Positions 4,717 to 55,399 of a stretch of 64,000 nucleotides of DNA are shown piece after piece. The stretch spans positions 404,426,001-404,490,000 of the forward strand of contig OZ024741.1 in assembly GCA_964016885.1 (NCBI GenBank), given 5' to 3'. Both the position numbers and the translations under genes were made by a program. A model generated the notes under the pieces. It had not been told where the DNA came from. It searched no databases and saw only the letters and a program-made list of their open reading frames with translations. Every line of letters begins with the position of its first letter. Positions within the stretch are counted from its first letter, which is position 1. Origin of the DNA: Eledone cirrhosa (lineage: Eukaryota).

Positions 4717-5490
4717 TCTACCCCGTTCTCTCTATCTTTCACTCTCTCTGGTTCTGGCTCTACTCCCTTCTCGTTGTCTTTGCTGTATACATATACTCAG
4801 ACACAAACATATATACAACAAAACAGATTTTATACTCTTTTTCTTTCTCTTTCTATGGCTCTGCCTGTCACTGTATCCTTCCTCATTTCCAGATATTCAC
4901 ACACAAACATATACACAGCCAGAGCCAGACAGATAAATAATTTGGGGAAAAAAGTGCTTTAAGCCTAAAAAGAAAATCAAACAGCTTTATCGGGAAATAA
5001 ATCTTCTGGAATATATTTGTTCTGATGTCGCAAGCAGCCTTGTGTGAATGAAATTTTCTAAAATGAAAAAAAAAAAGAAAGAATTTTTCTTGTGCATTTT
5101 CTTCTTATGAAGACATTTGTACGGCAAAGAAATATTACAAACTGCTTTCTTTGCGAACAACTTCTTTTTTTTTCTCCAATATATTTTAGAAAACAACTAA
5201 AAAACCAGCGACAGGAAATTAAAGAATTATCAACGTTGACGCGAAACATTTTTTTAAAATTGAAATATCAAGAAAAACATTAATGATATAATGATGCATA
5301 TTTTAATCTTTATCTTCAGCAAATTATTTTATTTTTTTAAAAGTATTTCGGGGGGAAGGAGGATATGAAAAGAATTATATTAGCTAGGAACTTCTTTTTT
5401 TTTTACATAGCTTGAATGTAACTAAAAATAAATAAATTTTAAAATTGTTAAAAAAAAATAATAATACAATTTTCTTTCGTTGTTGTTTAG

Positions 5491-8120: not shown

Positions 8121-8507
8121 TACGTGGTTTTGTCTTTGCGTGCTTTTGTTCTCCACGCTCTACATATGACTTATTATCTTCGTTTTTTCGTTCATTGCCA
8201 GAGAACGTCTCTATGCACCACCTAAGAGAACATTAGTCTACGACCTCTTTTATACCATAAACGTGGTTTTGTCTTTTCGCGTAGTTGTTTTTCACCGCTC
8301 CTATTAATGACGTATTATTCGTTTTTTCCCGTTCTTTGCCAGCGAACGTTACCACGAACCAAAGTATCGTCTTCCTGTCTTCCTCCGGTTGCAACGTTTT
8401 TTGAAATATCCAGTTCTGCGTTTACAGATTGACTTTGATAGTTTCAGAAGATCCCATTAAGGGTGAAAGCAGCGATTCTTTGCTTAAACTTTAATCTGTT
8501 ATTTTAA
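8121..8507 (+). mobile_element. Family H PLE 3'-end fragment (short terminus) abutting (TA)n
   Basis: Near-identical reverse complement of 59660-60043. Confidence 0.9.
8440..8490 (+). ncRNA. Type-I hammerhead-like motif with variant core CAGAAGA (family H)
   Basis: Stem I AGTTT/AAACT; core CAGAAGA; stem II CCC/GGG; GAAA; stem III GCA/TGC; predicted cut after CUU. Confidence 0.6.
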
Positions 8508-8604
8508 TAAATAAATATATATATATATATATGTGTATGAATATATATATATATGCATATATACACGCACACACACACATACACGCACACACACACACAC
8601 ACAT

Positions 8605-8662
<58 letters not shown>

Positions 8663-9171
8663 CGTTTCTGAATTTGTTTAGCAAGATTCTTTATCTGAAA
8701 TCGTGTGTTGAAACCGATATTGTTATACTTTGGGAGGGTCATGTTGCCAATAAGAAACACACGCACCAGTTGCTTTCACTTCAATTTATTATATATTTAT
8801 AAATTTACAAATTTACAAATCTACAAACTTATAAATTTCTGGTTGGTTGGTTGGTTCCACAACCAGATAGTTGTTTATATATAGTGATAGTCCTTTCGTC
8901 ACACACTCTGTGACCTCTTCAGTGACTGGGGATACCTTTCTTTGTTTCTGTGCCTTTCCTTTCTTCTGTCTTACGCCATTTTGTTTCTGTGTGTGTGTTG
9001 TGTGCTCAGTTTGCGCATGCGCCACATCCGGGTGTCTGTGTGTGTTTGTGTTCATTTATCTATTTGTTTATTTATTTATTTATTTATTGTTGGTTGGTTG
9101 TTTGTTCTATGTGTGTGTGTGTTTTCATTTAGTCCTTAATTGTAAGTTGTGATGTTGCTGTTCCACTCACT

Positions 9172-10251
9172 CAGGAACTAGAGAAAAACACAATGGAAAG
9201 CATCCAGCAAATAGCAAACTCCATCCACCAGAGCATTAAAGTTACTATAGACTACCCAAGTAGACACCCCAACCATCGATTACCTGTACTAGACACAGAG
9301 CTCTGGTTAGATACCATTAACAACCAAAAACAAATCCTCCATTCCCATTATGCCAAACCCATGACTTCCAAACATCTGATCCACCGAAACTCGGCCATTT
9401 CGGACCATACCAACATCAACATACTGATTGCGGATTTGGTACGGGTGATGAGAAATGTGTCCCGCATGTGCAACCCCGAAGAACTAGAGAGACACATACA
9501 ACACTTCATCCACCGTATGCAGTTCTCTGGCTACAATCAGTGAGATAGAATCAGAGTGTATAGAGGAGCCAGAACCAAATGGGAAAAAATGGTAAATAAT
9601 GACATAAATGGGACCTGCCCCTTGTATAGGAGCAAATTTTGGAATAGAATAGAAAGAACTAGGAACAAGGCCAATAGAATAAACTCATGGTATGATAGCA
9701 ATAAATACCAGAGTGTAATGTTCATCAATACAACCCCTAGAGGCGAACTAACCTACAAATTTAGAAGGGCCCTAAATAAACATAAACTCAATATTAAGAT
9801 AGTAGAAAGACCAGGTACCTCCGTAAAAACACTTATTAGTAAGACATACCCGTTCCAAAGACCCTCATGTATAGATAAGAAATGTATAACCTGTAAAATA
9901 AGCCCCCATATTAACTGTAAAACTAGAAATGTGGTGTATAGCATAAGATGTACTGAAGGACAATGTAGAAACAAAAATATAGTGTACATAGGTGAGACAG
10001 CTCGTAGTATAGGGGAACGAATAAATGAACACTGGCGAGACTTTCAAGATAATAAAGAATCATCTGTGCTCTACCAACATGCTAAGATAGAACACAGGGG
10101 TAAATTAGATAACATAGAAATAAAAATAGAATCCACACACAGAAAAGATGCAATGTTTAGGCAAATTACAGAGGCAGTAAGCATAAAAGAATTACAACCA
10201 AAATTAAATAGAAAATATGAGTGGAACAGCAACATCACAACTTACAATTAA
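9172..10251 (+). pseudogene. PLE RT C-terminus + GIY-YIG endonuclease, 5'-truncated, one in-frame TGA (9541-9543)
   Basis: IANSI..IKVTIDYPS..RLPVLD, RMQFSGY, C-x4-C-x2-C linker, NVVYSIRC..YIGETARSIGERINEH; ORFs 9193-9543 and 9556-10251 share a frame. Confidence 0.88.
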
Positions 10252-10459
10252 GGACTAAATGAAAACACACACACACATAGAACAAACAACCAACCAACAA
10301 TAAATAAATAAATAAATAAACAAATAGATAAATGAACACAAACACACACAGACACCCGGATGTGGCGCATGCGCAAACTGAGCACACAACACACACACAG
10401 AAACAAAATGGCGTAGCACAGAAGAAAGGAAAGGCACAGAAACAAAGAAAGGAATCCCC

Positions 10460-10504
10460 AGTCACTGAAGAGGTCACAGAGTGTGTGACGAAAGGACTAT
10501 GACT
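10460..10504 (+). ncRNA. Minimal type-I hammerhead ribozyme (family A)
   Basis: Stem I AGTCA/TGACT; CTGAAGA; stem II GTCACA/TGTGAC; GAAA-GGAC-TA. Further copies at 8883-8927 (-) and 54854-54896 (+). Confidence 0.85.
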
Positions 10505-10662
10505 ATATATAAACAACTATCTGGTTGTGGAACCAACCAACCAACCAGAAATTTATAAGTTTGTAGATTTGTAAATTTATAAATTTATAAATATATAATA
10601 AATTGAAGTGAAAGCAACTGGTGCGTGTGTTTCTTATTGGCAACATGACCCTCCAAAAGTAT

Positions 10663-10714
<52 letters not shown>

Positions 10715-12191: not shown

Positions 12192-12575
12192 ATAATATAA
12201 AATAAAAAAGATGGTTAAAAGAGTTCCATGTATTTTATTATGCGCATTTCAAAAACAAATATTTTCATGGGATGATATTTGCGTTCTCATCAGATAAGAT
12301 AGGAAGACATGATATGAAGCTTAAAAAACATTGCAAGCAGTGAAGTGTTAAATCGACATATGAAAAATAAAATAAGATGGATATATGAGATTGGAAAAAA
12401 GGAGTAAAAGGGGGAAGGAAAAGGTAAGGAAGATTTTATATTGTTTATTGATTTTATATTATTTATCGATTTTATATTATTTATTGATTTTATATTATTT
12501 ATACTCCAGTCCTATAAACTTTTGTTATTTCTGTTTACTTTTTACATACATACATATATACATACATATATACAT

Positions 12576-12615
<40 letters not shown>

Positions 12616-12747
12616 AGATCAAAAGATGGTTAAAGGAGTTCCATGTATTTTATTATGCGCATTTCAAAAAAAAACATCATCATGCAATGATATTTGTGTT
12701 TTCATCAGATAAAACAGGAGAACATGATATGAAGGCTAAAAAACACT

Positions 12748-12748
<1 letters not shown>
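12192..12748. mobile_element. Family C pLTR fragments (two minus-strand HHR copies) and a chimeric family C/E end
   Basis: TTTTATTATGCGCATTTC...TCATCAGATAA at ~12232-12297 and ~12647-12714. Confidence 0.8.
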
Positions 12749-12801
<53 letters not shown>

Positions 12802-12819
12802 CGTGTGTGTGTATGAATG

Positions 12820-13022
12820 GACCTGTTATTTTTATCTAAAGACAATTTTTCCAATTTCAACCCGCCCGTCCCCTCAATCTATCTTATTTCTCATTCTTTC
12901 TTCTGATGAAGCACTAGCGTCCGAAACGTTAAGACTCTCTCCCTGCTATATGAAGCGTTAACCTAATATATACCTTTCATATACTGTACCGATTGTGTTG
13001 TTATTTCTGTTTACCTTTTACA
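12820..13022 (+). mobile_element. Family E PLE-type 3'-end fragment
   Basis: Reverse-complement homologues at 49748-49828 and 55653-55840; carries an HHR. Confidence 0.8.
12899..12934 (+). ncRNA. Minimal type-I hammerhead ribozyme (family E)
   Basis: TCTT-CTGATGA-A-G(C/G)AC-TAGC-GTCC-GAAA-CG-TT-AAGA with palindromic AACGTT; the copy at 55741-55776 (-) has a perfect GGAC/GTCC stem II. Confidence 0.8.
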
Positions 13023-13051
13023 TACATACATATATACATACATATATAGAT

Positions 13052-13089
<38 letters not shown>

Positions 13090-13097
<8 letters not shown>

Positions 13098-14490
13098 AGA
13101 TCAAAAGATGGTTAAAGGAGTTCCATGTATTTTATTATGCGCATTTCAAAAACAAACATCATCATGCAATAATATTTGTCTTTTCATCAGATAAAACAGG
13201 AGAACATGATATGAAGGCTAAAAAACACTTGTGGATAGTGCAGTTTTAAATCAACATATGAAAAGTAGTTTTAGATTGATGTGTGATATGGGGAAAAATA
13301 TTTTATTTAGAGAGGGGCGGGGGAAGGATGAAAAAAAGGGGAGGAGATGAGAGTGAAGGTGGAGAGGGAGAGATGGGTGATAGAGAGAAAGAGATAGTTT
13401 TTATAACTGAGAAAAGATATATTGTTTTACATAGAGAGTTTGAGAACCGTTGGAAGATAATGTATAAATTAAAAGAATTTGAAAATTAACGAAGGGAAAG
13501 AGAGGGAGTATTGAGATTAATGTATTGAGATTAAAAAGTTTGAACATAGAGAGAAAAAAATAATAATTGCGGATGAATATTCTAACGTCAAAAAGGTGTA
13601 TGTTTATAAGTATTATAGCAATTCCAAAATTAATTTTCAAATTTCAAATTCTTTTAATTTACACATTATCTTCCAACGGTTCTCAACCTCTCTATGTAAA
13701 ACAATATATCTTTTCTCAGTTATAAAAACTATCTCTTTCTCTCTATCACCCATCTCTCCCTCTCCACCTTCACTCTCATCTCCTCTCCTTTTTTCATCCT
13801 TCCCCCCCCCCTCTCTAAATAAAATAATTTTCCTCGTACATATTTTTCCCTTCGTTAATTTTCAAATTCTTTTAATTCATACATTATCTTCCAACGGTTC
13901 TCAACCTCTCTATGTAAAACAATATATCTTTTCTCAGTTATAAAAACTATCTCTTTCTCTCTATCACCCATCTCTCCCTCTCCACCTTCACTCTCATCTC
14001 CTCCCCTTTTTTCATCCTTTCCACCCCACTCTCTAAATAAAATAATTTTTCCTCGTACATATTTTTCCCTTCGTTAATTTTCAAATTCTTTTAATTTATA
14101 CATTATCTTCCAACGGTTTTCAACCTCTCTATGTAAAACAATATATCTTCTCTCAGTTATAAAAACTATCTCTTTCTCTCTATCACCCATCTCTCCCTCT
14201 CCACCTTTACTCTCATCTCCTCCCCTTTTTTTCATCCTTTCCACCACCCCCCTCTCTAAATAAAATATTTTTCCCAATATCACACATCAATCTAAAACTA
14301 CTTTTCATATGTTGATTTAAAACTGCACTATCCACAAGTGTTTTTTAGCCTTCATATCATGTTCTCCTGTTTTATCTGATGAAAAGACAAATATTATTGC
14401 ATGATGATGTTTGTTTTTGAAATGCGCATAATAAAATACATGGAACTCCTTTAACCATCTTTTGATCTTATATATTATGTATACTCCAGT

Positions 14491-14492
<2 letters not shown>
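13090..14492. mobile_element. Family C non-coding inverted insertion (two 3' ends head to head)
   Basis: Minus arm ~13090-13633, plus arm ~13630-14492, joined at TTAA; HHRs at 13130-13196 (-) and 14370-14436 (+); three ~220-bp sub-repeats. Confidence 0.9.
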
Positions 14493-14536
<44 letters not shown>

Positions 14537-16328
14537 GGAGGTGAGTTTTATTGTAGTACAATAAAGCAATGCAGATATCGGATAAGAAGCACTCTACAGT
14601 TTGTAGGACTGGAGTATACATAATATAAGATGAAAAGATGGTTAAAGGAGTTCCATGTATTTTATTATGCGCATTTCAAAAAAAAACATCATCATGCAAT
14701 AATATTTGTGTTTTCATCAGATAAAACAGGAGAACATGATATGAAGGCTAAAAAACACTTGTGGATAGTGCAGTTTTAAATTAACATATGAAAAGTGGTT
14801 TTAGATTGATGTGTGATATTGGGAAAAATATTTTATTTAGAGAGGGGGTGGGTGGAAAGGATGAAAAAGGGGAGGAGATGAGAGGGAGAGATGGGTGATA
14901 GAGAGAAAGAGATAGTTTTTATAACTGAGAGGAGATATATTGTTTTACATAGAGAGGTTGAGAACCGTTGGAAGATAATGTATAAATTAAAGGAATTTGA
15001 AAATTAACGAAGGGAATTTATGTATGAAGATAGAGAGAAAAAATAATAATTGTGGATGAATATTCTAACGTCAAAAAAAGTGTATGTTGATAAGTATTGT
15101 GGCAATTTCAAAATTAACGAAGAGAAAAATTATTAAGGTTTGTGTGTAGAAGGATTTGAGAAAAATAATGTGAAGTTAAAGTTTGTATATTGAAGGAATT
15201 GATAATATATGCGAATAAAGAGTTAATATGTATTAAGAATGAGTTCGTTGATGGGGAGAAAAAAATAATAAATTAAGGATGAAATTGAGATTAAAAAGAT
15301 TTATGATAGAGAGAAAAAATAATAATGATTGCGGATGAATATTCTAACGTCAAAAAAACAAATGTATATGTTATGAAGGATTTTACAAGGTGAAGATAGA
15401 ATGAGGGTAATGAGTAAACAAGTATTATAGAGTGTATAATGCCCTTTAAAGTAAGGTAGGAAGATGGGTATATTTTAAAGAGGTGTATGTATATGTGCCT
15501 TTGAGAAAAGATTCTAAATTGATAAAGAATTGAATATTAACTGTATACTTTGTGAAAAGTCCTATGGAATTTATGCAGGCAGATAGAAAACAAATCTGTA
15601 CGTCTATTTATTATAGAATCTAGGTTAGAGATAATGGTAAATTTTTCATTTAGGCAGAGATTACAGATTTTAGATAGAGAGCTGTTCAAGTATGAGGATG
15701 CAGAAGAAACCTTCTTCCAAAAGATGGTATATTTAATGTTTTTGTCTTTTAAGGACCATATGAGTTCTGAGAGAGCAGTGTTGGTTCTTTTAAGTTTGTA
15801 TTTGAAAGATGAATGATGATTATAGAGACGAACTTTAAAAGAGGTGGAAGTGGAGCCAAAATAGGTGAAGGAATTGGTGCTAGTTATAATTTTACATTCA
15901 TAAATTAAGTTTTTATCGAGACAATGGTTGTTGAGAGGACATTTATTTTTAATGCGGCAGTTGCAATTAGAGAGATTATTAATGAGTGACCTAGTGTTAT
16001 CTATAGAAGGAATTGGATTGGAGAAGTTGTTTGCGATAGGAATAATAGGAATAATAGTTTCTTGATTTAGAGTTGGATTATGAACATTTAGCGAAGTTGT
16101 GTTTGACGTTGTATTTGGGTTTACAGAAGTTAGCCTAGGGTTTACAATGACGTCGGGAGTACTATTACTGTTATTATGAAATTCAATGTTGGAAGGAAGA
16201 GATTTAGTATTTAGTATTTTATTGTTGTGTTTAGAGATGATGTTGGAAATATTGGAGGATGTAGAATAAGAAAATTTGATGGTGCACTATCCACAAGTGT
16301 TTTTTAGCCTTCATATCATGTTCGCCTG

Positions 16329-16395
16329 TTTTATCTGATGAAAACACAAATATTATTGCATGATGATGTTTGTTTTTGAAATGCGCATAATAAAA
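16329..16395 (+). ncRNA. Type-I hammerhead ribozyme in 5' pLTR (family C)
   Basis: Stem I TTTTAT/ATAAAA; CTGATGA; 12-bp stem II ACAAATATTATT/GATGATGTTTGT with GCAT loop; GAAA; palindromic ATGCGCAT; predicted cut after 16389. Confidence 0.9.
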
Positions 16396-16601
16396 TACAT
16401 GGAACTCCTTTAACCATCGTTTGATCCTATATTATGTATACTCCAGTCCTACAAACTGTAGAGTGCTTCTTATCCGATATCTGCATTGCTTTATTGTACT
16501 ACAATAAAACTCACCTCCTACATTAACTTGCTCCTTAACGGTTGAGCGCTTACTCTCATATCGGATACCTTTTGATGGTCCTTCACCTCTTCTTCTACAA
16601 C

Positions 16602-19004
16602 ATGGATTATTACAACATAACCAATTCAACTAAAGACATTCCTATACCTGGTAAATCTGAATTCACCAAACTTCTTATTGAAAAAACTGACTCCTTCGTA
16701 AGAAGACTTAGATGGACAGCCTATTTCTATGACCAGCGCCTAAAAGGGAACTTCCATACCAAAGAACATAACTTCCTCGATCATCTTTTTAATTCTAGAC
16801 GAAATCCCCCTTCCAACAAAAATCTAGTACAATTCGAGGAAGAATTAACTAAAATAATAAAAAATCTTAAATTCAAGAGATACCCTTACAAAGGACAAGA
16901 GCACCTTGTAAATCTCAAGAACACAATCTCTAACCTAAATTCCTCAAAAAATGTTTTAGTCCACTCTGACAAAACCAATAACTTATATGGTATTTCCAAG
17001 GATAATTATAACAACCTTATCCTAAAGGAACTTAGGAAAAAGTATCGTAAAACCAACCATGAAAATTTAGAATACATAAACCTTGAAGCCTCTGAGATTA
17101 TGTCAAAACTTGGCATTGAAAAAAAGACCGAACCATTCCTCCCAAGAACTCCGAGGATAAATCTCAAGGATCACAAAAACAATTTTCGCACTGAACTACC
17201 TGTTAGATTAATCGCCCCCTCTAAATCTGATCTGGGGGTTGTTAGTAAAGCCATCTTGGATAGAATTATCCCACAGGTTAGTTCTAATTGCTCTTCTTTG
17301 AACCTAAATTTATGGTTTGGTACTTCTGAGGTGATTGGCTGGTTCAACAAATTGGATAATAAAAACAAACTAAAATTTATTCAATTTGATATTGCCAGCT
17401 ACTATTCCTCCATTTCGCCTTCACTTCTCAATAATGCTCTATCTTTCGCACTTAAATATTCTGACATCACCACAGATGAACTTCACATCATCCTCACCGC
17501 ACGTAAAACCATCCTAGAGTTCAACAACGAATATTGGACCAGAGCCGATATCTCTAACAACTTCGACATCACAATGGGAGCATCCGATTCATCCCAATTG
17601 ACTGATTTAATTGGTATCTTCATTTTGAACTCTTTGAGTCGGAAAATTTCTCAACTTCGCGGTGGAATTTATCGTGACGATGGACTCTTTACTATCCTAA
17701 ATTGCAATATAGTTAACCTTAATATTATTAAGAACAATATACGTAATCTCTTTAACCAAAATAACCTAAAAATTGAATTTGATAATAGTATCAAACTAGC
17801 TAATTTCTTGGATGTATCTCTTAATCTTGACACTGGCCTATATTACCCTTACCATAAAAACAATGAGAACCTAAATTATATTAACTTTAAATCTAACCAT
17901 CCTACCAATATCAAGAATGCTATAGTTAGTAATATTGGAAAAAGAATATCTAACATATCCTCTAATAAAAACATCTTTGATGCTAACGCCAATTACTATA
18001 ATAACGCACTTTCTAAAGCCGGCTATCCAGATAAAATCAAATATAGTAAAGAAACAAATTCTAGAAAAACTTACAGTAGAATAATTAATCATGATCATTC
18101 CAATAATTTTAATAAAAGACCTAGATTCAAAAACATAATCTGGTATAATGCTCCATTCTCCATCTCTATTAATAACAATATTCCTAAATTATTTTTTAGT
18201 GCCTTAAATAAATGCTTCCCTCCCTCACATATCTATAGTAAAATATTTAACAAACACACCATCAAATTTTCTTATTCTACATCCTCCAATATTTCCAACA
18301 TCATCTCTAAACACAACAATAAAATACTAAATACTAAATCTCTTCCTTCCAACATTGAATTTCATAATAACAGTAATAGTACTCCCGGCGTCATTGTAAA
18401 CCCTAGGCTAACTTCTGTAAACCCAAATACAACGTCAAACACAACTTCGCTAAATGTTCATAATCCAACTCTAAATCAAGAAACTATTATTCCTATTATT
18501 CCTATCGCAAACAACTTCTCCAATCCAATTCCTTCTATAGATAACACTAGGTCACTCATTAATAATCTCTCTAATTGCAACTGCCGCATTAAAAATAAAT
18601 GTCCTCTCAACAACCATTGTCTCGATAAAAACTTAATTTATGAATGTAAAATTATAACTAGCACCAATTCCTTCACCTATTTTGGCTCCACTTCCACCTC
18701 TTTTAAAGTTCGTCTCTATAATCATCATTCATCTTTCAAATACAAACTTAAAAGAACCAACACTGCTCTCTCAGAACTCATATGGTCCTTAAAAGACAAA
18801 AACATTAAATATACCATCTTTTGGAAGAAGGTTTCTTCTGCATCCTCATACTTGAACAGCTCTCTATCTAAAATCTGTAATCTCTGCCTAAATGAAAAAT
18901 TTACCATTATCTCTAACCTAGATTCTATAATAAATAGACGTACAGATTTGTTTTCTATCTGCCTGCATAAATTCCATAGGACTTTTCACAAAGTATACAG
19001 TTAA
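16602..19004 (+). CDS. PLE polyprotein: reverse transcriptase + C-terminal GIY-YIG endonuclease (800 aa from this ATG)
   Basis: Uninterrupted ORF with FIQFDIASYYSSI, FDITMG, GIYRDDGL, NFLDV, then CNCR..CPL..CL, LIYECK..YFGST..FKVRLYNH, CNLCLNEK. The start codon could instead be 16575. Confidence 0.95.
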   Translation: MDYYNITNSTKDIPIPGKSEFTKLLIEKTDSFVRRLRWTAYFYDQRLKGNFHTKEHNFLDHLFNSRRNPPSNKNLVQFEEELTKIIKNLKFKRYPYKGQEHLVNLKNTISNLNSSKNVLVHSDKTNNLYGISKDNYNNLILKELRKKYRKTNHENLEYINLEASEIMSKLGIEKKTEPFLPRTPRINLKDHKNNFRTELPVRLIAPSKSDLGVVSKAILDRIIPQVSSNCSSLNLNLWFGTSEVIGWFNKLDNKNKLKFIQFDIASYYSSISPSLLNNALSFALKYSDITTDELHIILTARKTILEFNNEYWTRADISNNFDITMGASDSSQLTDLIGIFILNSLSRKISQLRGGIYRDDGLFTILNCNIVNLNIIKNNIRNLFNQNNLKIEFDNSIKLANFLDVSLNLDTGLYYPYHKNNENLNYINFKSNHPTNIKNAIVSNIGKRISNISSNKNIFDANANYYNNALSKAGYPDKIKYSKETNSRKTYSRIINHDHSNNFNKRPRFKNIIWYNAPFSISINNNIPKLFFSALNKCFPPSHIYSKIFNKHTIKFSYSTSSNISNIISKHNNKILNTKSLPSNIEFHNNSNSTPGVIVNPRLTSVNPNTTSNTTSLNVHNPTLNQETIIPIIPIANNFSNPIPSIDNTRSLINNLSNCNCRIKNKCPLNNHCLDKNLIYECKIITSTNSFTYFGSTSTSFKVRLYNHHSSFKYKLKRTNTALSELIWSLKDKNIKYTIFWKKVSSASSYLNSSLSKICNLCLNEKFTIISNLDSIINRRTDLFSICLHKFHRTFHKVYS

Positions 19005-20037
19005 TATTCAATTCTTTATCAATTTAGAATCTTTTCTCAAAGGCACATATACATACACCTCTTTAAAATATACCCATCTTCCTACCTTACTTTAAAGGGC
19101 ATTATACACTCTATAATACTTGTTTACTCATTACCCTCATTCTATCTTCACCTTGTAAAATCCTTCATAACATATACATTTGTTTTTTTGACGTTAGAAT
19201 ATTCATCCGCAATCATTATTATTTTTTCTCTCTATCATAAATCTTTTTAATCTCAATTTCATCCTTAATTTATTATTTTTTTCTCCCCATCAACGAACTC
19301 ATTCTTAATACATATTAACTCTTTATTCGCATATATTATCAATTCCTTCAATATACAAACTTTAACTTCACATTATTTTTCTCAAATCCTTCTACACACA
19401 AACCTTAATAATTTTTCTCTTCGTTAATTTTGAAATTGCCACAATACTTATCAACATACACTTTTTTTGACGTTAGAATATTCATCCACCATTATTATTT
19501 TTTCTCTCTATCTTCATACATAAATTCCCTTCGTTAATTTTCAAATTCCTTTAATTTATACATTATCTTCCAACGGTTCTCAACCTCTCTATGTAAAACA
19601 ATATATCTTTTTCTCAGTTATAAAAACTATCTCTTTCTCTCTATCACCCATCTCTCCCTCTCCACCTTCACTCTCATCTCCTCCCCCTTTTTTCATCCTT
19701 TCCACCCACCCCCTCCCTAAATAAAATATTTTTTCCTCGCACATATCCTCCCTTCCTTAATTTTCAAATTTTTTTAATTTATACATTATCTTCCAACGGT
19801 TTTCAACCTCTCTATGTAAAACAATATATCTCCTCTCAGTTATAAAAACTATCTCTTTCTCTCTATCACCCATCTTTCCCTCTCATCTCCTCCCCTTTTT
19901 CATCCTTTCCACCCCCACCCTCTCTAAATAAAATATTTTTCCCAATATCACACATCAATCTAAAACCACTTTTCATATGTTGATCTAAAACTGCACTATC
20001 CACAAGTGTTTTTTAGACTTCATATCATGTTCTCCTG

Positions 20038-20104
20038 TTTTATCTGATGAAAAGACAAATATTATTGCATGATGATGTTTGTTTTTGAAATGCGCATAAT
20101 AAAA
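20038..20104 (+). ncRNA. Type-I hammerhead ribozyme in 3' pLTR (family C)
   Basis: Same structure as 16329-16395; predicted cut after 20098. Confidence 0.9.
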
Positions 20105-20134
20105 TACATGGAACTCCTTTAACCATCTTTTGAT

Positions 20135-20194
<60 letters not shown>

Positions 20195-20199
<5 letters not shown>

Positions 20200-20575
20200 A
20201 AGGTCCTTGTAAGGTCCTTGGTACACTTAGGTATATTTTAAAAAAAGGAAAAGAATGACTTAATTTGTAGTTCTAAATAATTTGATTTATAATATAATAA
20301 TATGAGTTGGTACCGTGGATTGGCTGTATCGGTAGAGGGTCGGACGTCATGAATTGAAGCATAGAGTTACCTCCCTGTATGATCTGAGTTCAAATCCCGC
20401 CGAGGTTAGCTTTGCGTTTCATCCTTACGGGGTCGATAAAATAAAGTACCAGTAATACACTGGTATAATTGGTGGCCTTGTGCCAAAAGTAGAAACAATT
20501 ATTATAATATTATAAAATTAAATCAAATTATTTAGAACTACAAGTGAAGTCATTCTTTTCCTTTTTTTCAAATAT
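20195..20575. mobile_element. Fold-back element in (TA)n with a SINE at its centre
   Basis: AAAAAAGGAAAAGAATGACTT..TTGTAGTTCTAAATAATTTGATTTA (~20240-20289) is inverted at ~20519-20568; the left arm is longer. Confidence 0.7.
20303..20503 (+). mobile_element. tRNA-derived SINE (Nin/Deu-like)
   Basis: Matches the family consensus. Confidence 0.9.
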
Positions 20576-21193: not shown

Positions 21194-21355
<162 letters not shown>

Positions 21356-21356
21356 T

Positions 21357-21555
21357 GGGGAAAGAATTAGAAACCCGACGGCTGAGCTCCGGCCGTTTTG
21401 ACAGCTAGATCCGAGCGTTCGGATCTAGCTGTCGAAACGGCCGGAGCTCAGCCGTCGGGGTCCTGACTTTTTCCTATTACCCACTCTACCACCATATATG
21501 TCGAGTACTCTGCTGCGTTATAGTCCGCCTGGTTCCTTACCACACTTTCTTTGTT
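21357..21555. mobile_element. Family B fold-back (diverged subfamily; short left arm, long right arm)
   Basis: CCCGACGGCTGAGCTCCGGCCG...AGATCCGA-GCGT-TCGGATCT...GAAACGGCCGGAGCTCAGCCGTCGGGG. Confidence 0.85.
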
Positions 21556-21686
21556 ATACACACACACACACACACACACTTATATATATATATATAACAT
21601 GTAGTTTCCCCGGTTATGTGTGAGGATAACCACAGTTCAAAAAGTTACTCAATGCATTGTTAACCCATTGGCATCTTTATTATATA

Positions 21687-23289: not shown

Positions 23290-23521
23290 ATATATATATG
23301 TGTGTATGATTTTATCATTTATTTTGTCTGACCTGTTTAGCTTGACTTGTTTTTTGGCTTAGGTGGTTAATGCCTTCTTGACCGCCTTCTTAGGTTGTAT
23401 GGTGTTTATAACATATGTTTAGCTCTGGTTTTTTAAACTATGGAGCGCTTGCCTGCATGACTCTGAATTTGCGTTACGTTTCGCTTTTTCTACCCACCGA
23501 AATGCGATTCTCGCTAAATTT
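23290..23521 (+). mobile_element. Family I (TA)n-flanked repeat ending CCGAAATGCGATTCTCGCTAA
   Basis: Homologues at 27722-27957 (+) and 40500-40680 (-), all ending at (TA)n. Confidence 0.7.
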
Positions 23522-27263: not shown

Positions 27264-27303
<40 letters not shown>

Positions 27304-27307
<4 letters not shown>

Positions 27308-27702
27308 GGAGGTGAGTTTTATTGTAGTACAATAAAGCAATGCAGATATTGGATAAGTAGCACTCTACAGTTTGTAGGACTGGAGTATAAATAATAATAT
27401 ATAAGATCAAAAGATGGTTAAAAGAGTTCCATGTATTTTATTATGCGCATTTCAAAAACAAATATCATCATGCAATAACATTTGCATTTTCATCAGATAA
27501 AATAGGGAGACATGATATGAAGGTTAAAACACACTTGTGAATTGTTGATTTAAAACTGCACTATTCACAAGTGTGTTTTAACCTTCATATCATGTCTCCC
27601 TATTTTATCTGATGAAAACGCAAATGTTATTGCATGATGATATTTGTTTCTGAAATGCGCATAATAAAATACATGGAACTCTTTTAACCATCTTTTGATC
27701 TT
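27304..27702. mobile_element. Family C fold-back (long left arm, short right arm) with two HHRs
   Basis: Same termini as 14533 and 20138; HHRs at ~27436-27502 (-) and ~27603-27669 (+). Confidence 0.9.
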
Positions 27703-27721
27703 ATATATATATATATATATT

Positions 27722-28015: not shown

Positions 28016-28021
<6 letters not shown>

Positions 28022-28197
28022 GTATGACCCCGACGGCAGAGCTCAAACCGTTTCGACGGCTATTTCTGGACTAGTCATTTTCCTATTACCGATTACATAT
28101 TACCCATACATTTTCCTATTACCCACTCTACTACCCTAAGTATTGAGTACTCTGGTGTGTTATGGTCCATCTGGTTCCTTACCACAACTCCTTCGTT
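28016..28197. mobile_element. Family B inverted insertion
   Basis: Short minus arm GACCCCGACGGCAGAGCTC..., long plus arm ending CCTTCGTT followed by (AT)n. Confidence 0.8.
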
Positions 28198-28658
28198 ATA
28201 TATATATACACAGGACACAATAATCATGCACACATACATATACACAGTATATATTTGTTTATACAAGTCAAACAGACAGAGAGACATGTATAAATGTCTG
28301 AAATGTATCGTTCTACATCTTTGATCCGGCATGTTTCGCCGGTGAACGCAACATGAATACATCAGAGACTAATTTCTAAGCTACCGAATAAATATGAAGG
28401 TTGCTGAGTCAGTAGTTAACTATATAGTATAGAGGTGACCATCAAGTGCTGCGTTGCAGCATCACTTACGATAAAAGCTCCTTGACCAAATTATTTCTCC
28501 TTGATTGAAATAATACGGTAACTACAGTAGAATATATAGTTATTGATTTCTATGGTAGTGTCTGAGAATGAATTGGATATGATGTGTAGTCTGATGAGCT
28601 TCCTTTCAGCTTTGATTATTGTTGGAACATCATGTATACAGACATATATACAGACAGC

Positions 28659-35674: not shown

Positions 35675-37252
35675 TTAGGGTTAGAGCGTCGGTCTTACAA
35701 TTAAGAGGTTGGGAGTTCGATTCTCGGACCGGGTAATGAGCTATGTCGTTAAGCAAGACACTTTATTTCACGTTGCTGCAGTTTACTCAGCTGTAGACAT
35801 GAATTGTAATGTCAATGGTGCCAAGCTATATCGGCCATTGCCTTTCCCTTGGAGAACATAATATATAGTGTATATTTAGAGTATATAGTGTATAGAGTGT
35901 ATATATAGAGTATAGAGTGTATATTTAGAGTATATAGTGTATCGAGTGTATATATAGAGTATAGACTGTATATATAGAGTATATATAGAATGTATATAGT
36001 GTATATAGAGAGAATATATAGTGTATAGAGTGTATATATAGAGTATAGAGTGTATATATAGTGTATATATAGAGTATAGAGTGTATATATAGTGTATATA
36101 TAGAGTATAGAGTGTATATATAGAGTATAGAGTGTATATTTAGAGTATATAGTGTATATATAGTGTATGTTTAGAGTATAGAGTGTATATATAGTGTATA
36201 TATAGAGTGTATATAGTGTATATATAGAGAATATATAGTGTATAGAGTGTATATATAGAGTATAGAGTGTATATATATAGTGTATATATATAGAGTATAG
36301 AGTGTATATATAGTGTATATATATAGAGTATAGAGTGTATATATAGAGTATAGAGTGTATATATAGTGTATATATATAGAGTATAGAGTGTATATATAGT
36401 GTATATATATAGAGTATAGAGTGTATATATAGTGTATATATATAGAGTATAGAGTGTATATTTAGAGTATAGAGTGTATATATAGTGTATATATAGAGTA
36501 TAGAGTGTATATATAGTGTATATATAGAGTGTATATAGTGTATATATAGAGAATATATAGTGTATAGAGTGTATATATAGAGTATATAGTGTATATATAG
36601 AGAATATATAGTGTATAGAGTGTATATATAGAGTATAGAGTGTATATATAGTGTATATATATAGAGTATAGAGTGTATATATAGTGTATAGAGTGTATAT
36701 ATAGAGTATAGAGTGTATATATAGTGTATATATAGAGTATAGAGTGTATATAGAGAGTATAGAGTGTATATATAGTGTATATATAGAGTATAGAGTGTAT
36801 ATATAGAGTATAGAGTGTATATATAGTGTATATATAGAGTGTATATAGTGTATATATAGAGACTATATAGTGTATAGAGTGTATATATAGAGTATATAGT
36901 GTATATATAGTGTATATATAGAGTATAGAGTGTATATATAGAGTATAGAGTGTATATATACAGTGTATATATAGTGTATATATAGTGTGTATAGAGAGTA
37001 TAGAGTGTATATATATAGTGTATATATAGTGTATATATAGTGTATATATAGTATATATTGTGATGTCACAGGTGCCAAGCTGTATCTGCCTTTGTCTTTC
37101 CGAAGGATAACATCGATGGCGTGTAGAAGAGAGGTTGGTATACATGGGGGACTGCTGGTCTTCCACAAACAACCTTGTCCGGACTTGTACCTCAGAGGGT
37201 AACATTCTAGGTTCAAATCACTCGGTCATCCGTGACCGAACTGGTTTTACCT
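35675..37252 (+). mobile_element. Meta/V-like SINE sequence interrupted by a 1.2-kb satellite
   Basis: Head at 35675-35858, tail at 37057-37252. Confidence 0.65.
35859..37056. repeat. Complex satellite built from TATAGAG/TATAGTG/(TA)n units
   Basis: Directly visible repeat. Confidence 0.95.
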
Positions 37253-38624: not shown

Positions 38625-38974
38625 TAACAATAATAATAATAATAAAATAATAATAAATAGATATAAAACAGCTGCACACTTACAGCAACACGTTACTAAT
38701 TGGTGTTGATGATGATGATGGTGGTGATGATGATGATGGTGGTGATGATGGTGGTGATGATGGTGATGGTGGTGATGATGGTGGCGATGATGATGATGGT
38801 GGTGATGACGGTGGTGATGATGATGATGGTGATGGTGATGTTGATGACGATGATGGTGATGTGACGATGGTGGTGATGATGATGGTGATGGTGATGATGA
38901 TGTGATGAGAATATATTTATCTTATCAGATCATCATCATCCAATCATCTGAGAATACACAACAAACACGTGAAT

Positions 38975-39575
38975 CGTCACCACAAACAGCATCATCATCA
39001 TCGTCGTCATCACACACAGCATCATCATCATCGTCGTCATCACACACAGCATCATCATCATCGTCGTCATCACACACAGCATCATCATCATCGTCGTCAT
39101 CACACACAGCATCATCATCATCGTCGTCATCACAAACAGCATCATCATCATCGTCGTCATCACACACAGCATCATCATCATCGTCGTCATCACACACAGC
39201 ATCATCATCATCGTCGTCACCACAAACAGCATCATCATCATCGTCGTCATCACACACAGCATCATCATCATCGTCGTCATCACACACAGCATCATCATCA
39301 TCGTCGTCATCACACACAGCATCATCATCATCGTCGTCATCACAAACAGCATCATCATCATCGTCGTCATCACACACAGCATCATCATCATCGTCGTCAC
39401 CACAAACAGCATCATCATCATCGTCGTCATCACACACATCATCATCATCATCGTCGTCACCACAAACAGCATCATCATCATCGTCGTCATCACACACAGC
39501 ATCATCATCATCGTCGTCATCACAAACAGCATCATCATCATCGTCGTCATCACACACAGCATCATCATCATCGTC
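38975..39575. repeat. 30-bp minisatellite, ~20 copies
   Basis: Unit TCGTCGTCATCACACACAGCATCATCATCA. Confidence 0.97.
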
Positions 39576-39916
39576 ATTACCACAATCACCACCTTCTTCC
39601 TCATCATCATTATCATCAACACCATCACCAGTTTCATCACCATCAACACCCCCACCACCATCATCATGCTCACCCCCCAACTCACCACCACCATCATCAT
39701 CCCCACCCCCAACCCATCACCACCACCATCATCATCATCCTCACCCCCCAACCCACCACCCCCATCATCCTCCTCACCACCCCCATCCCCACCACCACCG
39801 TCATCATCCTCACCCCCCATCCCCACCCCCATCATCATCATCCTCACCCCCACCCCACCACCCACTACCACCACCACCATCATCACCATACACTACACTA
39901 TACAGTCTCTCCACTA

Positions 39917-40214
39917 TTCTGCAATAGACATTAATATATTAATTACTACAAAGAGTAAGAAACAACATTTAAAAATGACAACCCACCTGGTATTCTCTTA
40001 AATTTCAAAGAACAACACACCTATATGTATATATGTGTGGGTGTGTGTGTATATATATATGAGTGTGTGTGTGTGTATATATATATATGTGTGTGTGTGT
40101 GTGTGCGTATATATATATGTGTGTGTGTGTGTATACATACACATATATATATATATATATATAGGTGTGTTGTTCTTTGAAATTTAAGAGAATACCAGGT
40201 GGGTTGTCATTTTA
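39917..40214. repeat. Inverted repeat (~53 bp) around a microsatellite spacer
   Basis: AAAAATGACAACCCACCTGGTATTCTCTTAAATTTCAAAGAACAACACACCTA (~39971-40023) is mirrored at ~40162-40213. Confidence 0.85.
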
Positions 40215-40425: not shown

Positions 40426-40498
<73 letters not shown>

Positions 40499-40499
40499 T

Positions 40500-40817
40500 A
40501 TAATTTAGCGAGAATCGCATTTCGGCGGGTAGAAATTAACGAAACGCATCTTCAATAATGTGCAGACAAGCGCTCCATGCATATGAAGAGGATAGCAGAG
40601 CTATAAACATGAGTTAAAATGGTCATACACGCTGAGATGATGGTTAAGAAGCCATAGCCACCATAGCCAAAAAAGCGAGTACTCAATACTTAGGGTAGTA
40701 GAGTGGGAAATAAGAAAATGTAAGACCCCGACGACTGAGCTCGAGCCGTTTCGATGGCTATTTCGGGACTGAAATAGCCGTCGAAACGGCTTGAGCTCTG
40801 CCGTCGGGGTTATACTT

Positions 40818-40822
<5 letters not shown>
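40500..40822. mobile_element. Chimeric family I / family B fold-back
   Basis: Family I terminus (-) 40500-40680 fused through GAGT to the family B hairpin 40677-40822. Confidence 0.75.
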
Positions 40823-41037: not shown

Positions 41038-41214
41038 TATATATAATAGTATTCAAAATATTCATAAATGAAAAATATTCTCATAATCAAAATATATATT
41101 TTATTATACATATTTCAAACGTACAATAGTATTTAAGTACGTTTTCATCAGATAAACTATAAAATTTGATATGTGCCATACCGCTACGGTTTTTATTATT
41201 CAATTCCAATAGTA

Positions 41215-42167: not shown

Positions 42168-42560
42168 TATGTGTGTATGTATATATACGTGTATGTGTGA
42201 GTATGCGTGAGTGTGTATGTATGTGTTCAGCAAGTGAACCTGACTATATTGGAGAGTGGACTAGATGTGATGTAATCATGCCAGTATTTCATTGGATGTA
42301 ATATGACGTTATACGACCTTCAACCATATTGCTGTTCAATGATTCTCTCTATTACATTCTCCATAAACAACTTGTCGCAAGACACCTACCTGATTATATA
42401 GACCACCATATATTTCACTTCTAGTTGCCAAATAATAATGAAGAAGCTGTATTGTAACCTATCTCTCTATCTATTTAGCTATTTATCTCTCTCTCTCTAT
42501 ATATATATCTAATCTAACTATCTATCTATCTATCAATCTATCTATCTATCTATCTATCTA

Positions 42561-44501
42561 GTGGTCACACTAATCAGGAAGGACGAGAATAAGGGGGATG
42601 ACATAGGCAACTTCCGGCCCATAACTCTGCTAAACACAGAGTTACAGATTTTGGCCAAGGTGTTGGCAAAGAGGCTGGCGCTTGTCGTCGAGAACCTGGT
42701 GGGAGAAGCGCAGACATGCGCGATCCCGACCAGGTCCATACACGACAACCTCCACCTCATGCGATACATCATAGAGAGGGTAGGGTGTAAACCCGGCTTC
42801 GGTGGGGCCCTGATCAACTTGGATCAGTCTAAGGCTTTCGATAGGGTTGACCATCGTTACCTGGATGCGGTGCTCGAGGCGGCAGGCTTCGGACCCGTGT
42901 TCAGGGGCTGGATTGCTGCAATGCACAACAGCAACATCTGTTCAAGGGTCAAGGTGAACGGTTACCTCTCGGAGCCGTTCCATATTACGCGATCCATTCG
43001 ACAGGGATGCCCTCTCTCCTCCCTTCTGTACGTACTGACTCTCGAGCCACTACTGCGGAAGCTGGAGCTATTGCAGGGCATCCCTCTGGAACCGGGACTG
43101 CGGAAAGCGGCGTCGGCCTACGCCGACGACGTGACAGTAATGGTGTCGAGCGCCTCGCAAATCGAGAAAGTCGGCACCTTACTAAAGGAATACGAAAGTC
43201 TCACAGGAGCGAAGCTGAACCGGGACAAGTCCATCGGTTTGCAACTCGGATCGTGGAGAGGCAGACCGATGCCTTCCGATGGCGTCGTCGGACGCTGGAC
43301 GGAAGGACCGGTAAAGCTGCTCGGGGTCTGGTTTGGTCCGGACCTCCAGGTGGAGAAGAACTGGAACGAAGTGACGGCCAAGGTGTTTGCACTCACCCAG
43401 AAGTGGGCCGAGTGCAAACTATCCTTGAAAGGTCGAGCGGAGGTGGCGAACACTTTTATAGCGTCCGCCATCTACTACCGCTTGACCGTCGTGCCTTGTC
43501 CAGCCAAAACGCTCGCCAAAATGGAGCGCGCCCTCTTCCGATTCCTTTGGAAGAGGCGGGCTCCTTTGGTAAGAAGATCCATCTGCTGCCAACACCCTTC
43601 TAACGGAGGGCTGGGGATGCCGTGGTTGACGATGCGCAAACACGCGCTCAGGCTGCGGCATCTCTACGTATTCCTCACCGGACAACCGGTGTGGGCCCCG
43701 TTCGTGAGGCGAGCCTTCCCACGACTCGTCTCACTGACCGAGCTGCAGTCCTGGGTCAAGCAGAGACCGAGGAAAATGGGCGACTGGCACATCGAATGTG
43801 CTCAGGCGCTCACAGCCCTCTGGCAGGCGGACCCGGCGATCAGTGGAGACTCCACTTCGTCATTCTATAGAGGGTTGGTCCGCAGCAAGTGCGACGACGC
43901 GCTCGGTGAAACTCTAGGCGTGGAGGAAGATGAACTGGCCAGTCTGTTCGGTAGGACCTTCCGCCCGGGACCGATGGACAACTTCCAAAAGTCCCTGGCC
44001 TGGCAGTGCTACCGAGGAGCTCTACCAGTTCGAGACAAGCTCTACAGACATGGGCGCCCGGGCAGGGACCCTGCAAAAAAGATCTGTCCGAGGTGCGTGC
44101 GAGACGAAGAAACCGTCGCGCACGCATTCATACACTGCCCGGGCGTCACTGACCTGTGGGGATATGTAGAACGACTATTGTCGCGGGTGGGACCAATCCA
44201 GTTGACCACCGAGTCCATTGTCATGATCAAACCGCCACCCTCCTTCAAAAACGAAGGAGAGGCGGTTTTCCTTTGTGTGATAGCTATGGCGAAAGAGGTT
44301 GTATGGTGGACAAGGTTGAAAGGGCTGAGGTCAGACACCTTTCTCTCCGGCCAACAACTGATTCTTTTTTTCAAATACCACTTTGGAAGAAGAATCAGGA
44401 TGGAGAGAGAGGTGCTGTACCGCAGCAAGTTTTATGAAAGGTGGGTGAAAGTGGCGAGAATGGCCCGAGTGAATGGGCCTTCTCTCTATATCAGCCTGTA
44501 G
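42561..44501 (+). CDS. Tx1 ORF2 remnant: RT + CCHC zinc finger (646 codons, no native start)
   Basis: NFRPITLLN, LDQSKAFDRV, IRQGCPLS, AYADD, KLLGVWF, CPRC..ETVAHAFIHC. Confidence 0.9.
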   Translation: MVTLIRKDENKGDDIGNFRPITLLNTELQILAKVLAKRLALVVENLVGEAQTCAIPTRSIHDNLHLMRYIIERVGCKPGFGGALINLDQSKAFDRVDHRYLDAVLEAAGFGPVFRGWIAAMHNSNICSRVKVNGYLSEPFHITRSIRQGCPLSSLLYVLTLEPLLRKLELLQGIPLEPGLRKAASAYADDVTVMVSSASQIEKVGTLLKEYESLTGAKLNRDKSIGLQLGSWRGRPMPSDGVVGRWTEGPVKLLGVWFGPDLQVEKNWNEVTAKVFALTQKWAECKLSLKGRAEVANTFIASAIYYRLTVVPCPAKTLAKMERALFRFLWKRRAPLVRRSICCQHPSNGGLGMPWLTMRKHALRLRHLYVFLTGQPVWAPFVRRAFPRLVSLTELQSWVKQRPRKMGDWHIECAQALTALWQADPAISGDSTSSFYRGLVRSKCDDALGETLGVEEDELASLFGRTFRPGPMDNFQKSLAWQCYRGALPVRDKLYRHGRPGRDPAKKICPRCVRDEETVAHAFIHCPGVTDLWGYVERLLSRVGPIQLTTESIVMIKPPPSFKNEGEAVFLCVIAMAKEVVWWTRLKGLRSDTFLSGQQLILFFKYHFGRRIRMEREVLYRSKFYERWVKVARMARVNGPSLYISL

Positions 44502-45660: not shown

Positions 45661-45720
<60 letters not shown>

Positions 45721-45725
<5 letters not shown>

Positions 45726-48700: not shown

Positions 48701-48918
48701 ATTTGTTGTTTTTTTTCAATAAACAAATCTCATCATTTCTGAAGACAGCATATATATGTGAAGGTATGTATATTTCATCTGATAATTTGTAATATGTTTA
48801 CATAGATCTATATGATATACATACCAACATATACACCCGAGAAATGATCGTAAAATGATGAATTTTTTAATATAAGGAACTTGTTCTTTGTTTTTATTTC
48901 ATTGTTTTTATTAATTTA
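45721..48918. mobile_element. Family D (Hydra-clade-like) PLE: 3.2-kb head-to-head inverted insertion
   Basis: Minus arm 45721-~47397 and plus arm ~47404-48918, each with a disrupted GIY-YIG (CNCRIKRNCPLKGNCL..IVYKC..YIGAT..RFNTH); the left arm has ~127 extra terminal nt. Confidence 0.93.
48730..48861 (+). ncRNA. Type-I hammerhead ribozyme with ~95-nt stem II insertion (family D)
   Basis: Stem I TCATCATTT/AAATGATGA; CTGAAGA; GAAA-TGATCG-TA (mirror arm CGATAG, consensus palindrome CGATCG). Confidence 0.75.
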
Positions 48919-49828: not shown

Positions 49829-49919
<91 letters not shown>

Positions 49920-49921
<2 letters not shown>

Positions 49922-50112
49922 CGAAGGAAATGTGGTAAGGAACCAGGTGGACCATAACGCACCAAAGTACTCAATACTTAGGGTAGTAGAGTGGGTAATA
50001 GGAACGAGTAGGACCCCGACGGCTGAGCTCAAGCCGTTTCGACTGCTAATTTTTTAGTCCAGAATTAGCCGTCGAAACGGCTTGAGCTCAGCCGTCGGGG
50101 TCCTACTCGTTC
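49920..50112. mobile_element. Family B fold-back (long left arm, short right arm)
   Basis: Near-identical to 2283-2484 with a different loop junction. Confidence 0.9.
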
Positions 50113-50122
50113 ATATATATAT

Positions 50123-50185
<63 letters not shown>

Positions 50186-55107: not shown

Positions 55108-55143
<36 letters not shown>

Positions 55144-55144
<1 letters not shown>

Positions 55145-55340: not shown

Positions 55341-55399
<59 letters not shown>

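Follow-up and report, generated by a model that had tools for sequence, protein, structure and literature searches.

Where on its RNA a Penelope-like element (PLE) starts reverse transcription, why its insertions carry a tail at one end and what its ribozyme contributes are open questions, and the in vitro work that we found concerns a Poseidon element only. We looked into these questions at one locus of Eledone cirrhosa (GenBank assembly GCA_964016885.1, contig OZ024741.1, positions 404,426,001 to 404,490,000 of the forward strand), a 64,000-nt stretch of AT-rich, microsatellite-rich eukaryotic DNA that we call the window and number from its first letter. The window holds a PLE whose boundaries, 14533 and about 20137, adjoin (TA)n tracts and which carries one open reading frame (ORF) and two hammerhead motifs; judged by its sequence features, it is an intact member of a new family in the already published Hydra clade of PLEs. 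The element is real and intact and probably young. A short bulged hairpin stands twice before its start codon, a few nucleotides downstream of positions where insertions end. The explanation that we favor, and consider fairly likely, is that these hairpins direct internal priming, from which a head-to-head pair with one short and one long end would result. What the sequence shows directly is the ORF, a pair of ribozyme motifs, the head-to-head arrangement within (TA)n, the two hairpin copies and the end positions; the mechanism we infer from them. The features of the element and of its relatives in the window are as follows.

14493..14533, no strand: left (TA)n tract, common to the neighboring short insertion A.
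14534..16284, minus strand: inverted, 5′-truncated arm with the 3′ part of the ORF, a 3′ untranslated region (UTR) with one repeat unit, a hammerhead, hairpin 1 and a long end.
16286..16523, plus strand: 5′ pseudo-long terminal repeat (pseudo-LTR), reaching 104 nt upstream and 134 nt downstream of the cut.
16317..16401, plus strand: 5′ type I hammerhead, core at 16335, predicted cut after 16389.
16440..16467, plus strand: bulged hairpin copy 1; the family's short ends lie just upstream, in an AU-rich stretch.
16530..16550, plus strand: bulged hairpin copy 2, with the start codon 51 nt downstream; the arm and insertion C (at 27303) have their long ends 6 nt before it.
16602..19004, plus strand: ORF of 800 amino acids, assigned by motifs and profile comparisons as PLE reverse transcriptase (RT), linker and C-terminal GIY-YIG endonuclease.
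18318..18575, plus strand: linker of 87 amino acids, low-complexity.
18576..18968, plus strand: predicted endonuclease, Hydra type (CxCx5C, LIY...YFG, R704, H708, CxxC, E765, N778, CxH).
19005..20098, plus strand: 3′ UTR of 1094 nt with two repeat units of ~220 bp (19511-19736 and 19737-19943) and without a hairpin copy.
20026..20110, plus strand: 3′ type I hammerhead, core at 20044, predicted cut after 20098.
20099..20137, plus strand: short end, reaching about 39-43 nt past the cut and stopping before hairpin 1.
20137..20195, no strand: right (TA)n tract, adjoining the element boundary.
13098..14493, no strand: insertion A, a noncoding head-to-head insertion of the same family with three 3′ UTR repeat units on its plus arm.
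27303..27710, no strand: insertion C, a short head-to-head insertion of a subfamily ~10% diverged, with one long and one short end.
12195..12751, minus strand: short copies E (12195-12400) and D (12600-12751); D duplicates the end and flank of A.

All eight outer ends of the family reach a tract of (TA)6 or longer, compared with 1.8% for a random position; about six of the ends are independent, as two share one tract and D duplicates the flank of A. All eight also extend 39 to 138 nt beyond the ribozyme cut, and none lies at the cut. The arm of the main element, for instance, has its predicted hammerhead cut at 14666 and ends 134 nt past it, 6 nt short of hairpin 2, and the long end of insertion C falls at the same base. 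The ribozyme cut is thus not what defines the insertion ends. The preliminary description of this DNA had located both predicted cuts correctly and noted that they would release a unit of 3709 nt containing the whole ORF; the suggestion that the released linear monomer (16390-20098), copied from its 3′ end, is the template fared less well. The ends lie 39 to 138 nt past the cut; therefore, the cleaved linear monomer is not the direct template. Furthermore, a PLE initiates internally in vitro without ribozyme cleavage (PMC11167929). We regard this template as very improbable in spite of its containing the whole ORF, and it would survive only if RT jumped from the 5′ end of the monomer to its 3′ end, which amounts to the circle or the strand jump discussed below.

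We also examined 21 loci that encode relatives (L001 to L021), obtained from a scan of a contig collection and found in GTDB bacterial genome records, 10 of them in one assembly; they are most likely animal host DNA binned into marine symbiont or bacterial assemblies. Among the 33 ribozyme copies listed at these loci, some of which may come from other PLE families, 22 had a TA tract within 400 nt, always at +31 to +119 and in a near and a far group, and none had a tract starting before +31. One locus, L003, showed the same two-ribozyme layout around an intact ORF, with the ribozymes 2487 nt apart.

The hairpin motif consists of a 4-bp helix, a 2-nt 3′ bulge, a variable inner stem-loop and a 3-nt tail. 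The strict pattern had 20 matches in 163 kb (mean of 50 shuffles, 0.88). Covariation was assessed on a set of 20, with one start per match, from which four strict matches were dropped (two not near a ribozyme and two duplicates) and to which four from a relaxed pattern were added. None of the inner pairs belonged to either pattern; the first was Watson-Crick in 20 of 20 (11 C-G and 9 U-A; shuffles, 10.1; P value = 5 × 10−5), the second in 16 (shuffles, 5.2) and the third in 15 (shuffles, 6.2). Counting pairs, we obtained 25 two-sided cells compared with 7.0 by shuffling, a value reached in 0 of 500 shuffles, and slid registers scored far lower; sequence relatedness may inflate these counts. 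In the main element, both copies lie between the ribozyme and the start codon, and there is no copy between the stop codon and the right (TA)n tract. Two copies, 62 to 68 nt apart, also precede the start codon in L003, L004, L005 (which was not in the training set), L008 and L018. At the remaining two loci that reach the protein N terminus, the 5′ UTR has been lost to the inverted arm (L001) or is truncated ~20 nt before a single hairpin copy (L009). By eye, the published Hydra-1_Ajap consensus has two copies before its ATG as well.

The distance between hairpins and ends was nearly constant. When ends were compared with a copy that continues, 12 of 18 fell 4 to 6 nt upstream of a hairpin copy, and the long end of the L011/L017 family was placed by eye 5 nt before the second copy as seen in L009. 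A covariance model of the hairpin gave 18 matches in the window at an E value of ≤2. Four belong to this family, and 13 of the other 14 were examined: 10 had a partner on the opposite strand, of which 8 end 0 to 8 nt upstream of the hairpin and two at 11 and 15 nt. Small head-to-head elements, short at one end and long at the other, account for most of the matches, and the model had no match in the Neptune-like element (8660-10667). Rfam gave no hairpin match at the gathering score in the window or in five related loci. We did not find the hairpin described in the literature searched, and subscription papers, Repbase notes, figures and bioRxiv supplements outside our reach may describe it.

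Under the favored explanation, the RT-endonuclease protein, probably as a dimer, would bind both hairpins on its RNA and nick both strands of a (TA)n tract. Each nick would then prime complementary DNA (cDNA) at an internal site, immediately 5′ of the respective hairpin, and the two cDNAs, lying on opposite strands, would form an inverted pair with a short end (site 1) and a long end (site 2), the 90-nt difference between the sites being the "tail". At the main element, one cDNA would have run 3852 nt (39 + 3709 + 104 nt, more than one unit) and the other would have stopped after about 1.75 kb, the two being joined by microhomology; the junction between the arm and the 5′ pseudo-LTR shows 2 nt of it. 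In the in vitro work reported for the Poseidon PLE, the protein, predicted to be dimeric, cuts and extends both target strands from two internal start sites and works with a dead ribozyme (PMC11167929). We also considered priming through long base-pairing with the target and rejected it: only 2 nt match at the long end, which cannot account for the long-end site. Whether the scheme extends to the whole Hydra clade, such that the twice-repeated hairpin docks two RT-endonuclease subunits and sets two priming sites ~5 nt upstream, one per (TA)n strand, is a tentative suggestion that we doubt slightly more than we believe.

Several observations weigh against hairpin-directed priming or against a simple history of the element. 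The rule for the ends was formulated after the data had been viewed, and many ends share families or a host record. Five of the 18 ends could not be placed in TA-rich element sequence, one (14493) lies inside hairpin 1, and both ends of insertion A are of the short type. Taken alone, the hairpins have no unusual stability (z scores of −1.15 and −0.30), and they could serve instead as a DNA element for the endonuclease. In the protein, two near-invariant prolines are replaced (P269S and P517A), with 10 of 41 homologues deviating equally overall. Finally, the divergence of the arm is 18-fold higher at its outer ends than inside, a difference that a single RNA template with a uniform clock leaves unexplained.

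The 3′ end of the main copy includes neither hairpin, so that RNA from this locus has them at its 5′ end only. A full-length daughter therefore requires a circle, a strand jump or a tandem parent, among which the sequence does not decide. From its own RNA, the main copy would produce one only if that RNA were circularized or if RT jumped between the pseudo-LTRs, from the 5′ one to the 3′ one; failing this, the main copy would serve as a protein donor in trans.

The circle depends on the ribozymes. Both are predicted from their motifs to cleave after an AUA triplet, and the 5′ hammerhead has a 16-bp stem II with one mismatch and a palindromic 8-nt stem III. A type I descriptor had 9 matches in the window, whereas 100 dinucleotide-shuffled windows had none; the nine comprise seven of the nine family copies, a variant at 41151 and one probable chance match at 62096. 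The core is intact and invariant in all nine family copies. The weak folding z scores (−0.08 and −1.91) count against the ribozyme call; Rfam gave no hammerhead match in the window at the gathering score or at an E value of ≤5 (chance snoRNA matches only), and the whole 5′ pseudo-LTR showed no larger structure (z score of −0.59). The A-U/G-U exchanges in stem II that the preliminary description had pointed out are correctly described, yet all are one-sided: across the nine copies, 6 of 16 pairs vary in this manner (A-U/G-U, U-G/C-G), 4 of 16 depart by unpaired cells and none changes on both sides. No measure exceeded shuffles, and we rejected stem II covariation as evidence.

A circular RNA of 3709 nt as the template would arise if both ribozymes cut, as a dimer held by the palindromic stem III, and the ends were ligated; RT starting from a hairpin would then cross the junction and continue around the circle. 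This model, already proposed in 2014 (PMC4209133), is compatible with hairpin priming and addresses the question of the template. The intact cores, the 8-bp duplex that the palindrome forms (−10.5 kcal/mol, which fits dimeric cleavage) and a main copy exceeding unit length speak for it. However, one circle should yield identical pseudo-LTRs, and these differ at 5 of 146 nt; ribozyme mutants of the anole element insert normally, with no reads ending at the cut in the experiments reported (PMC11167929), and PLE ribozymes are reported to cleave poorly in vitro (PMC4209133). A locus assembled as a circle (L018) was rejected as support for circular RNA because it is a DNA assembly. On balance, we consider the circle possible but rather unlikely.

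The second route would use an uncleaved linear transcript that starts ~100-120 nt before the 5′ ribozyme, with RT copying back as far as the 5′ end and jumping to a 3′ pseudo-LTR, often that of another RNA molecule. The 5′ ends of four copies (16286, 27545, 27525 and 12751), out of eight, cluster 97 to 121 nt before the ribozyme cut (by eye, at about −97, −101, −104 and −121) and may mark a transcription start or an RT stop. Six of the 11 mismatches between arm and main copy fall within the last 156 nt, and at L004 the pseudo-LTRs (5 of 147 nt) are more diverged than the arm (4 of 602 nt). On the other hand, the ends are few and one is nonindependent, the borders were chosen post hoc, and short 5′ ends are expected from truncation alone; moreover, the pseudo-LTRs of L003 differ at only 2 of 391 nt, and the arm is identical to the 5′ pseudo-LTR over the 92 nt before the long end. 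We give the jump a minority chance.

The third route would start from read-through RNA of a genomic tandem elsewhere, containing a unit followed by both hairpins; the main locus would then be a dead-end product that may still supply protein, and new insertions into an AT-rich stretch of the element itself, ahead of hairpin 1, would renew the tandem. Such a scenario is sketched in PMC11167929. L008 has a (TA)n tract directly before hairpin 1 of its coding unit, and the assembly of L018 is a 2394-nt terminal-repeat unit, a form that collapsed tandems take, yet the 64-kb window holds no such tandem. This, too, we would call unlikely rather than likely.

Next, we asked how old the insertion is. 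The arm (14534-16284) is the reverse complement of 18257-20137, extended by 5′ UTR up to 16523, and lacks one 223-bp unit of the 3′ UTR repeat. As the preliminary description had noticed, the overlap with the coding region (18257-19004) contains exactly 1 substitution (16153/18388, Gly596Asp). The near-identity it described does not extend to the end of the arm: 2 of 1323 nt differ inside (0.15%) compared with 9 of 335 nt distally (2.7%; Fisher test, P value = 2 × 10−5, with the border chosen post hoc). The mismatches concentrate in the ribozyme-bearing ends (19803-20137 versus 14534-14961, and in L004 2705-2851 versus 4905-5055), with hardly any differences in the coding parts of the arms; such a bias could be produced by mixed templates, by gene conversion or by assembly polishing. 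A recent insertion, as first described, remains probable: the open ORF favors youth, and the two internal clocks, low divergence inside and higher at the ends, disagree.

An older, inactive insertion whose arms owe their inner identity to gene conversion or assembly polishing would accommodate the 2.7-3.4% divergence at the ends and the two changed prolines, and arm and unit read through together would give a long double-stranded RNA. Against it, in simulations at 1.35-1.7% change per copy, the ORF stayed open in 29-35% of cases with substitutions only and in 2-5% with an assumed 7% of indels, and the catalytic residues are intact. We find this alternative improbable and keep to a recent insertion.

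The ORF lies in a stop-to-stop frame at 16539-19004, and the uninterrupted 800 amino acids reported earlier start at the ATG at 16602, which lines up with the starts of homologues (an in-frame ATG at 16575 would give 809). It is a single ORF with RT followed by a C-terminal GIY-YIG endonuclease. The RT motifs are DKT (amino acids 123-125), D263 and YRDD (357-360); the CxCx5C of the linker is formed by C659, C661 and C667, in columns invariant in 42 of 42 aligned sequences; and the endonuclease has C759 and C762 (CxxC), E765, N778, and C787 and H789 (CxH), with no Cys pair between the GIY and YIG positions and no CCHH. By alignment with homologues, all catalytic residues are present, in keeping with the earlier view that the PLE looks autonomous. 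The linker is 87 amino acids long compared with 13-25 in most homologues, owing to an Asn/Thr/Ser/Pro-rich insertion of ~70, and long linkers (36-237) also occur in 4 of 41 homologues. The N-terminal RWK motif reads RWT; among 42 sequences, the last position was K in 14, R in 9 and another residue in 5, including this protein, and the pattern was absent in 14. Of 103 columns with strong conservation, 8 differ in this protein, a degree of deviation equaled or exceeded in 10 of 41 homologues.

The RT and GIY-YIG assignments rest on these motifs and on profile comparisons. Pfam gave no family for the ORF at an E value of ≤0.01 and none at a useful E value for 14 aligned members, and a single-sequence PDB search with the protein gave chance matches only. 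In the profile comparisons, there was a weak match to RTs of solved structure (E value = 0.019) and a match to a Pfam-positive GIY-YIG of the window (E value = 7 × 10−5, probability 62%). The best database relatives are 33-46% identical in protein. A tree made by a quick method, with long branches and compositional warnings and not to be read as a clade test, grouped the protein with two other fragments of the window and two database proteins; a search for full-length Neptune-like outgroups scored 0 of 196 candidates.

As described in Craig et al. 2021 (PMC8557442), Hydra-clade elements have a single ORF with C-terminal GIY-YIG, DKT, RWK, CxCX5C, and CxxC plus CxH with no CCHH; they carry type I hammerheads in pseudo-LTRs, insert into (TA)n, have a 5′-attached inverted copy and are generally <3 kb. 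The element is assigned to this clade because its DKT, YRDD, CxCx5C, CxxC/CxH without CCHH, hammerheads and (TA)n insertion match the published features, as does RT with C-terminal GIY-YIG. The size tendency is exceeded by the 3709-nt unit, the excess coming from the 3′ UTR repeats and the linker. Membership in Neptune or Nematis was rejected, as the CX2-5CxxC linker and CCHH are absent, and so was membership in Naiad or Chlamys, as the endonuclease is C-terminal instead of N-terminal. A non-LTR retrozyme was likewise rejected: the unit is protein-coding, and its short copies are inverted pairs, not noncoding tandem repeats.

The proposal that this element is the source enzyme of a (TA)n-targeting system is plausible for the short copies at 12195-14493 and 27303-27710. 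It does not apply to the whole window, because at least two other Hydra-like coding families (about 31-35% identical in protein) and a Neptune-like family are also found in (TA)n. One Hydra-like family (45720-48915) is a decayed inverted pair with endonuclease fragments at 46772-47286 and 47484-47998 (35% identical to the main ORF), 189-bp 3′ UTR repeats, and one short and one long end. Another (59560-61546, also 8400-8515 and 62423-62700) has a thumb and endonuclease at 60697-61467 (31% identical), a hammerhead-like core that begins with CA, not CU, in all copies seen, and a hairpin with a long AT-rich loop. The Neptune-like PLE (8660-10667 and 54858) has a GIY-YIG with CCHH (9544-10251), lies head-to-head in (TA)n and has its own hammerhead.

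Small head-to-head elements are abundant between (TA)n tracts (2272-2510, 21336-21570, 28017-28200, 40480-40822, 49909-50135 and 55118-55351); they combine the hairpin described above with the 3′ half of what is probably a hammerhead whose stem III is long, and their short arm ends 5-8 nt before the hairpin and their long arm about 72 nt after the hairpin start. Further small hairpin-bearing elements lie at 59346-59500 and 63020-63640 (both head-to-head beside (TA)n) and at 23414-23454. The lone hammerhead variant (41085-41175, minus strand) shares stem I and the AUA cut site, has a stem II of 8 bp and, in the palindromic stem III, A-U in place of G-C, and is followed by a SINE-like (short interspersed element-like) repeat. 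A minimal hammerhead of another repeat family, with a 3′-terminal microsatellite that hosts insertion A, occurs at 12903 (plus strand) and 55772 (minus strand). A local duplication (95%; 12524-12751 and 13000-13233) comprises the end of insertion A and its flank, with a 37-nt piece of the tail inverted at 12484-12520. The window also contains a 662-amino-acid open frame with a non-LTR retrotransposon RT (Pfam RVT_1 and zf-RVT; 42513-44501), the abundant ~200-bp SINE-like repeat (20289-20511 and more than ten other places), and long low-complexity tandem arrays (38860-39930 and 35862-37058, with 30-bp and 20-51-bp units) that give rise to spurious open frames.

Ribozymes, inverted arms and (TA)n preference had already been published for the Hydra clade, and PLEs in general are described as typically carrying pseudo-LTRs, an inverted 5′ copy and a one-ended tail (PMC8557442); what we add is the paired hairpin and its fixed distance to the ends. 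A short covarying RNA motif at such a distance permits a direct mutational test, with an intact ORF at hand, and the annotation of Hydra-type ends. If the hairpin acts throughout the clade, both the head-to-head arms of PLE insertions and their tail on one side only would be accounted for. Since the downstream hairpins are lost in new copies, each generation would then depend on a strand jump of the LTR type or on a circular, protein-coding RNA produced by the ribozymes. As a research tool, a protein that places RNA-encoded DNA in (TA)n under the control of a 25-nt signal could be useful, too.

Compared with the Hydra-clade members described in PMC8557442 (Hydra-1_Obim, Hydra-1_Ajap and Penelope-n_HM), the element has the same ORF plan, motifs, type I hammerhead, (TA)n target and inverted copy, and it differs in its 3.7-kb unit (<3 kb there), its 1.1-kb repeat-bearing 3′ UTR, its 87-amino-acid linker and RWT in place of RWK. 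Its ribozyme has a 16-bp stem II and AUA, whereas those listed in that paper have 3-7 bp and GUH; by eye, both N terminus and ribozyme differ from those of Hydra-1_Obim, the one octopus family in that paper. Neptune and Nematis share with the main element the C-terminal GIY-YIG with an upstream Cys linker and the microsatellite bias, but they carry CX2-5CxxC and CCHH, both of which it lacks. With hammerhead PLEs, as described by Cervera and de la Pena 2014 (PMC4209133), and animal non-LTR retrozymes, it shares ribozymes in both pseudo-LTRs, a palindromic stem III that suggests a dimer and a possible circular monomer; it stands apart in being protein-coding and 3.7 kb long and in its short copies, which are head-to-head pairs, not tandem arrays. 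The Poseidon element PAc of Anolis carolinensis (Frangieh et al. 2024, PMC11167929) likewise has two internal RT starts downstream of its ribozyme, uses both strands of an AT-rich target and has a tail between the sites. PAc belongs to a different clade, and its sites, as reported from in vitro work, lie inside the ORF at one AC-rich stem-loop, about 30-40 nt apart, whereas the sites proposed here would fall within the 5′ UTR at a distance of 90 nt, each followed by a conserved bulged hairpin of its own.

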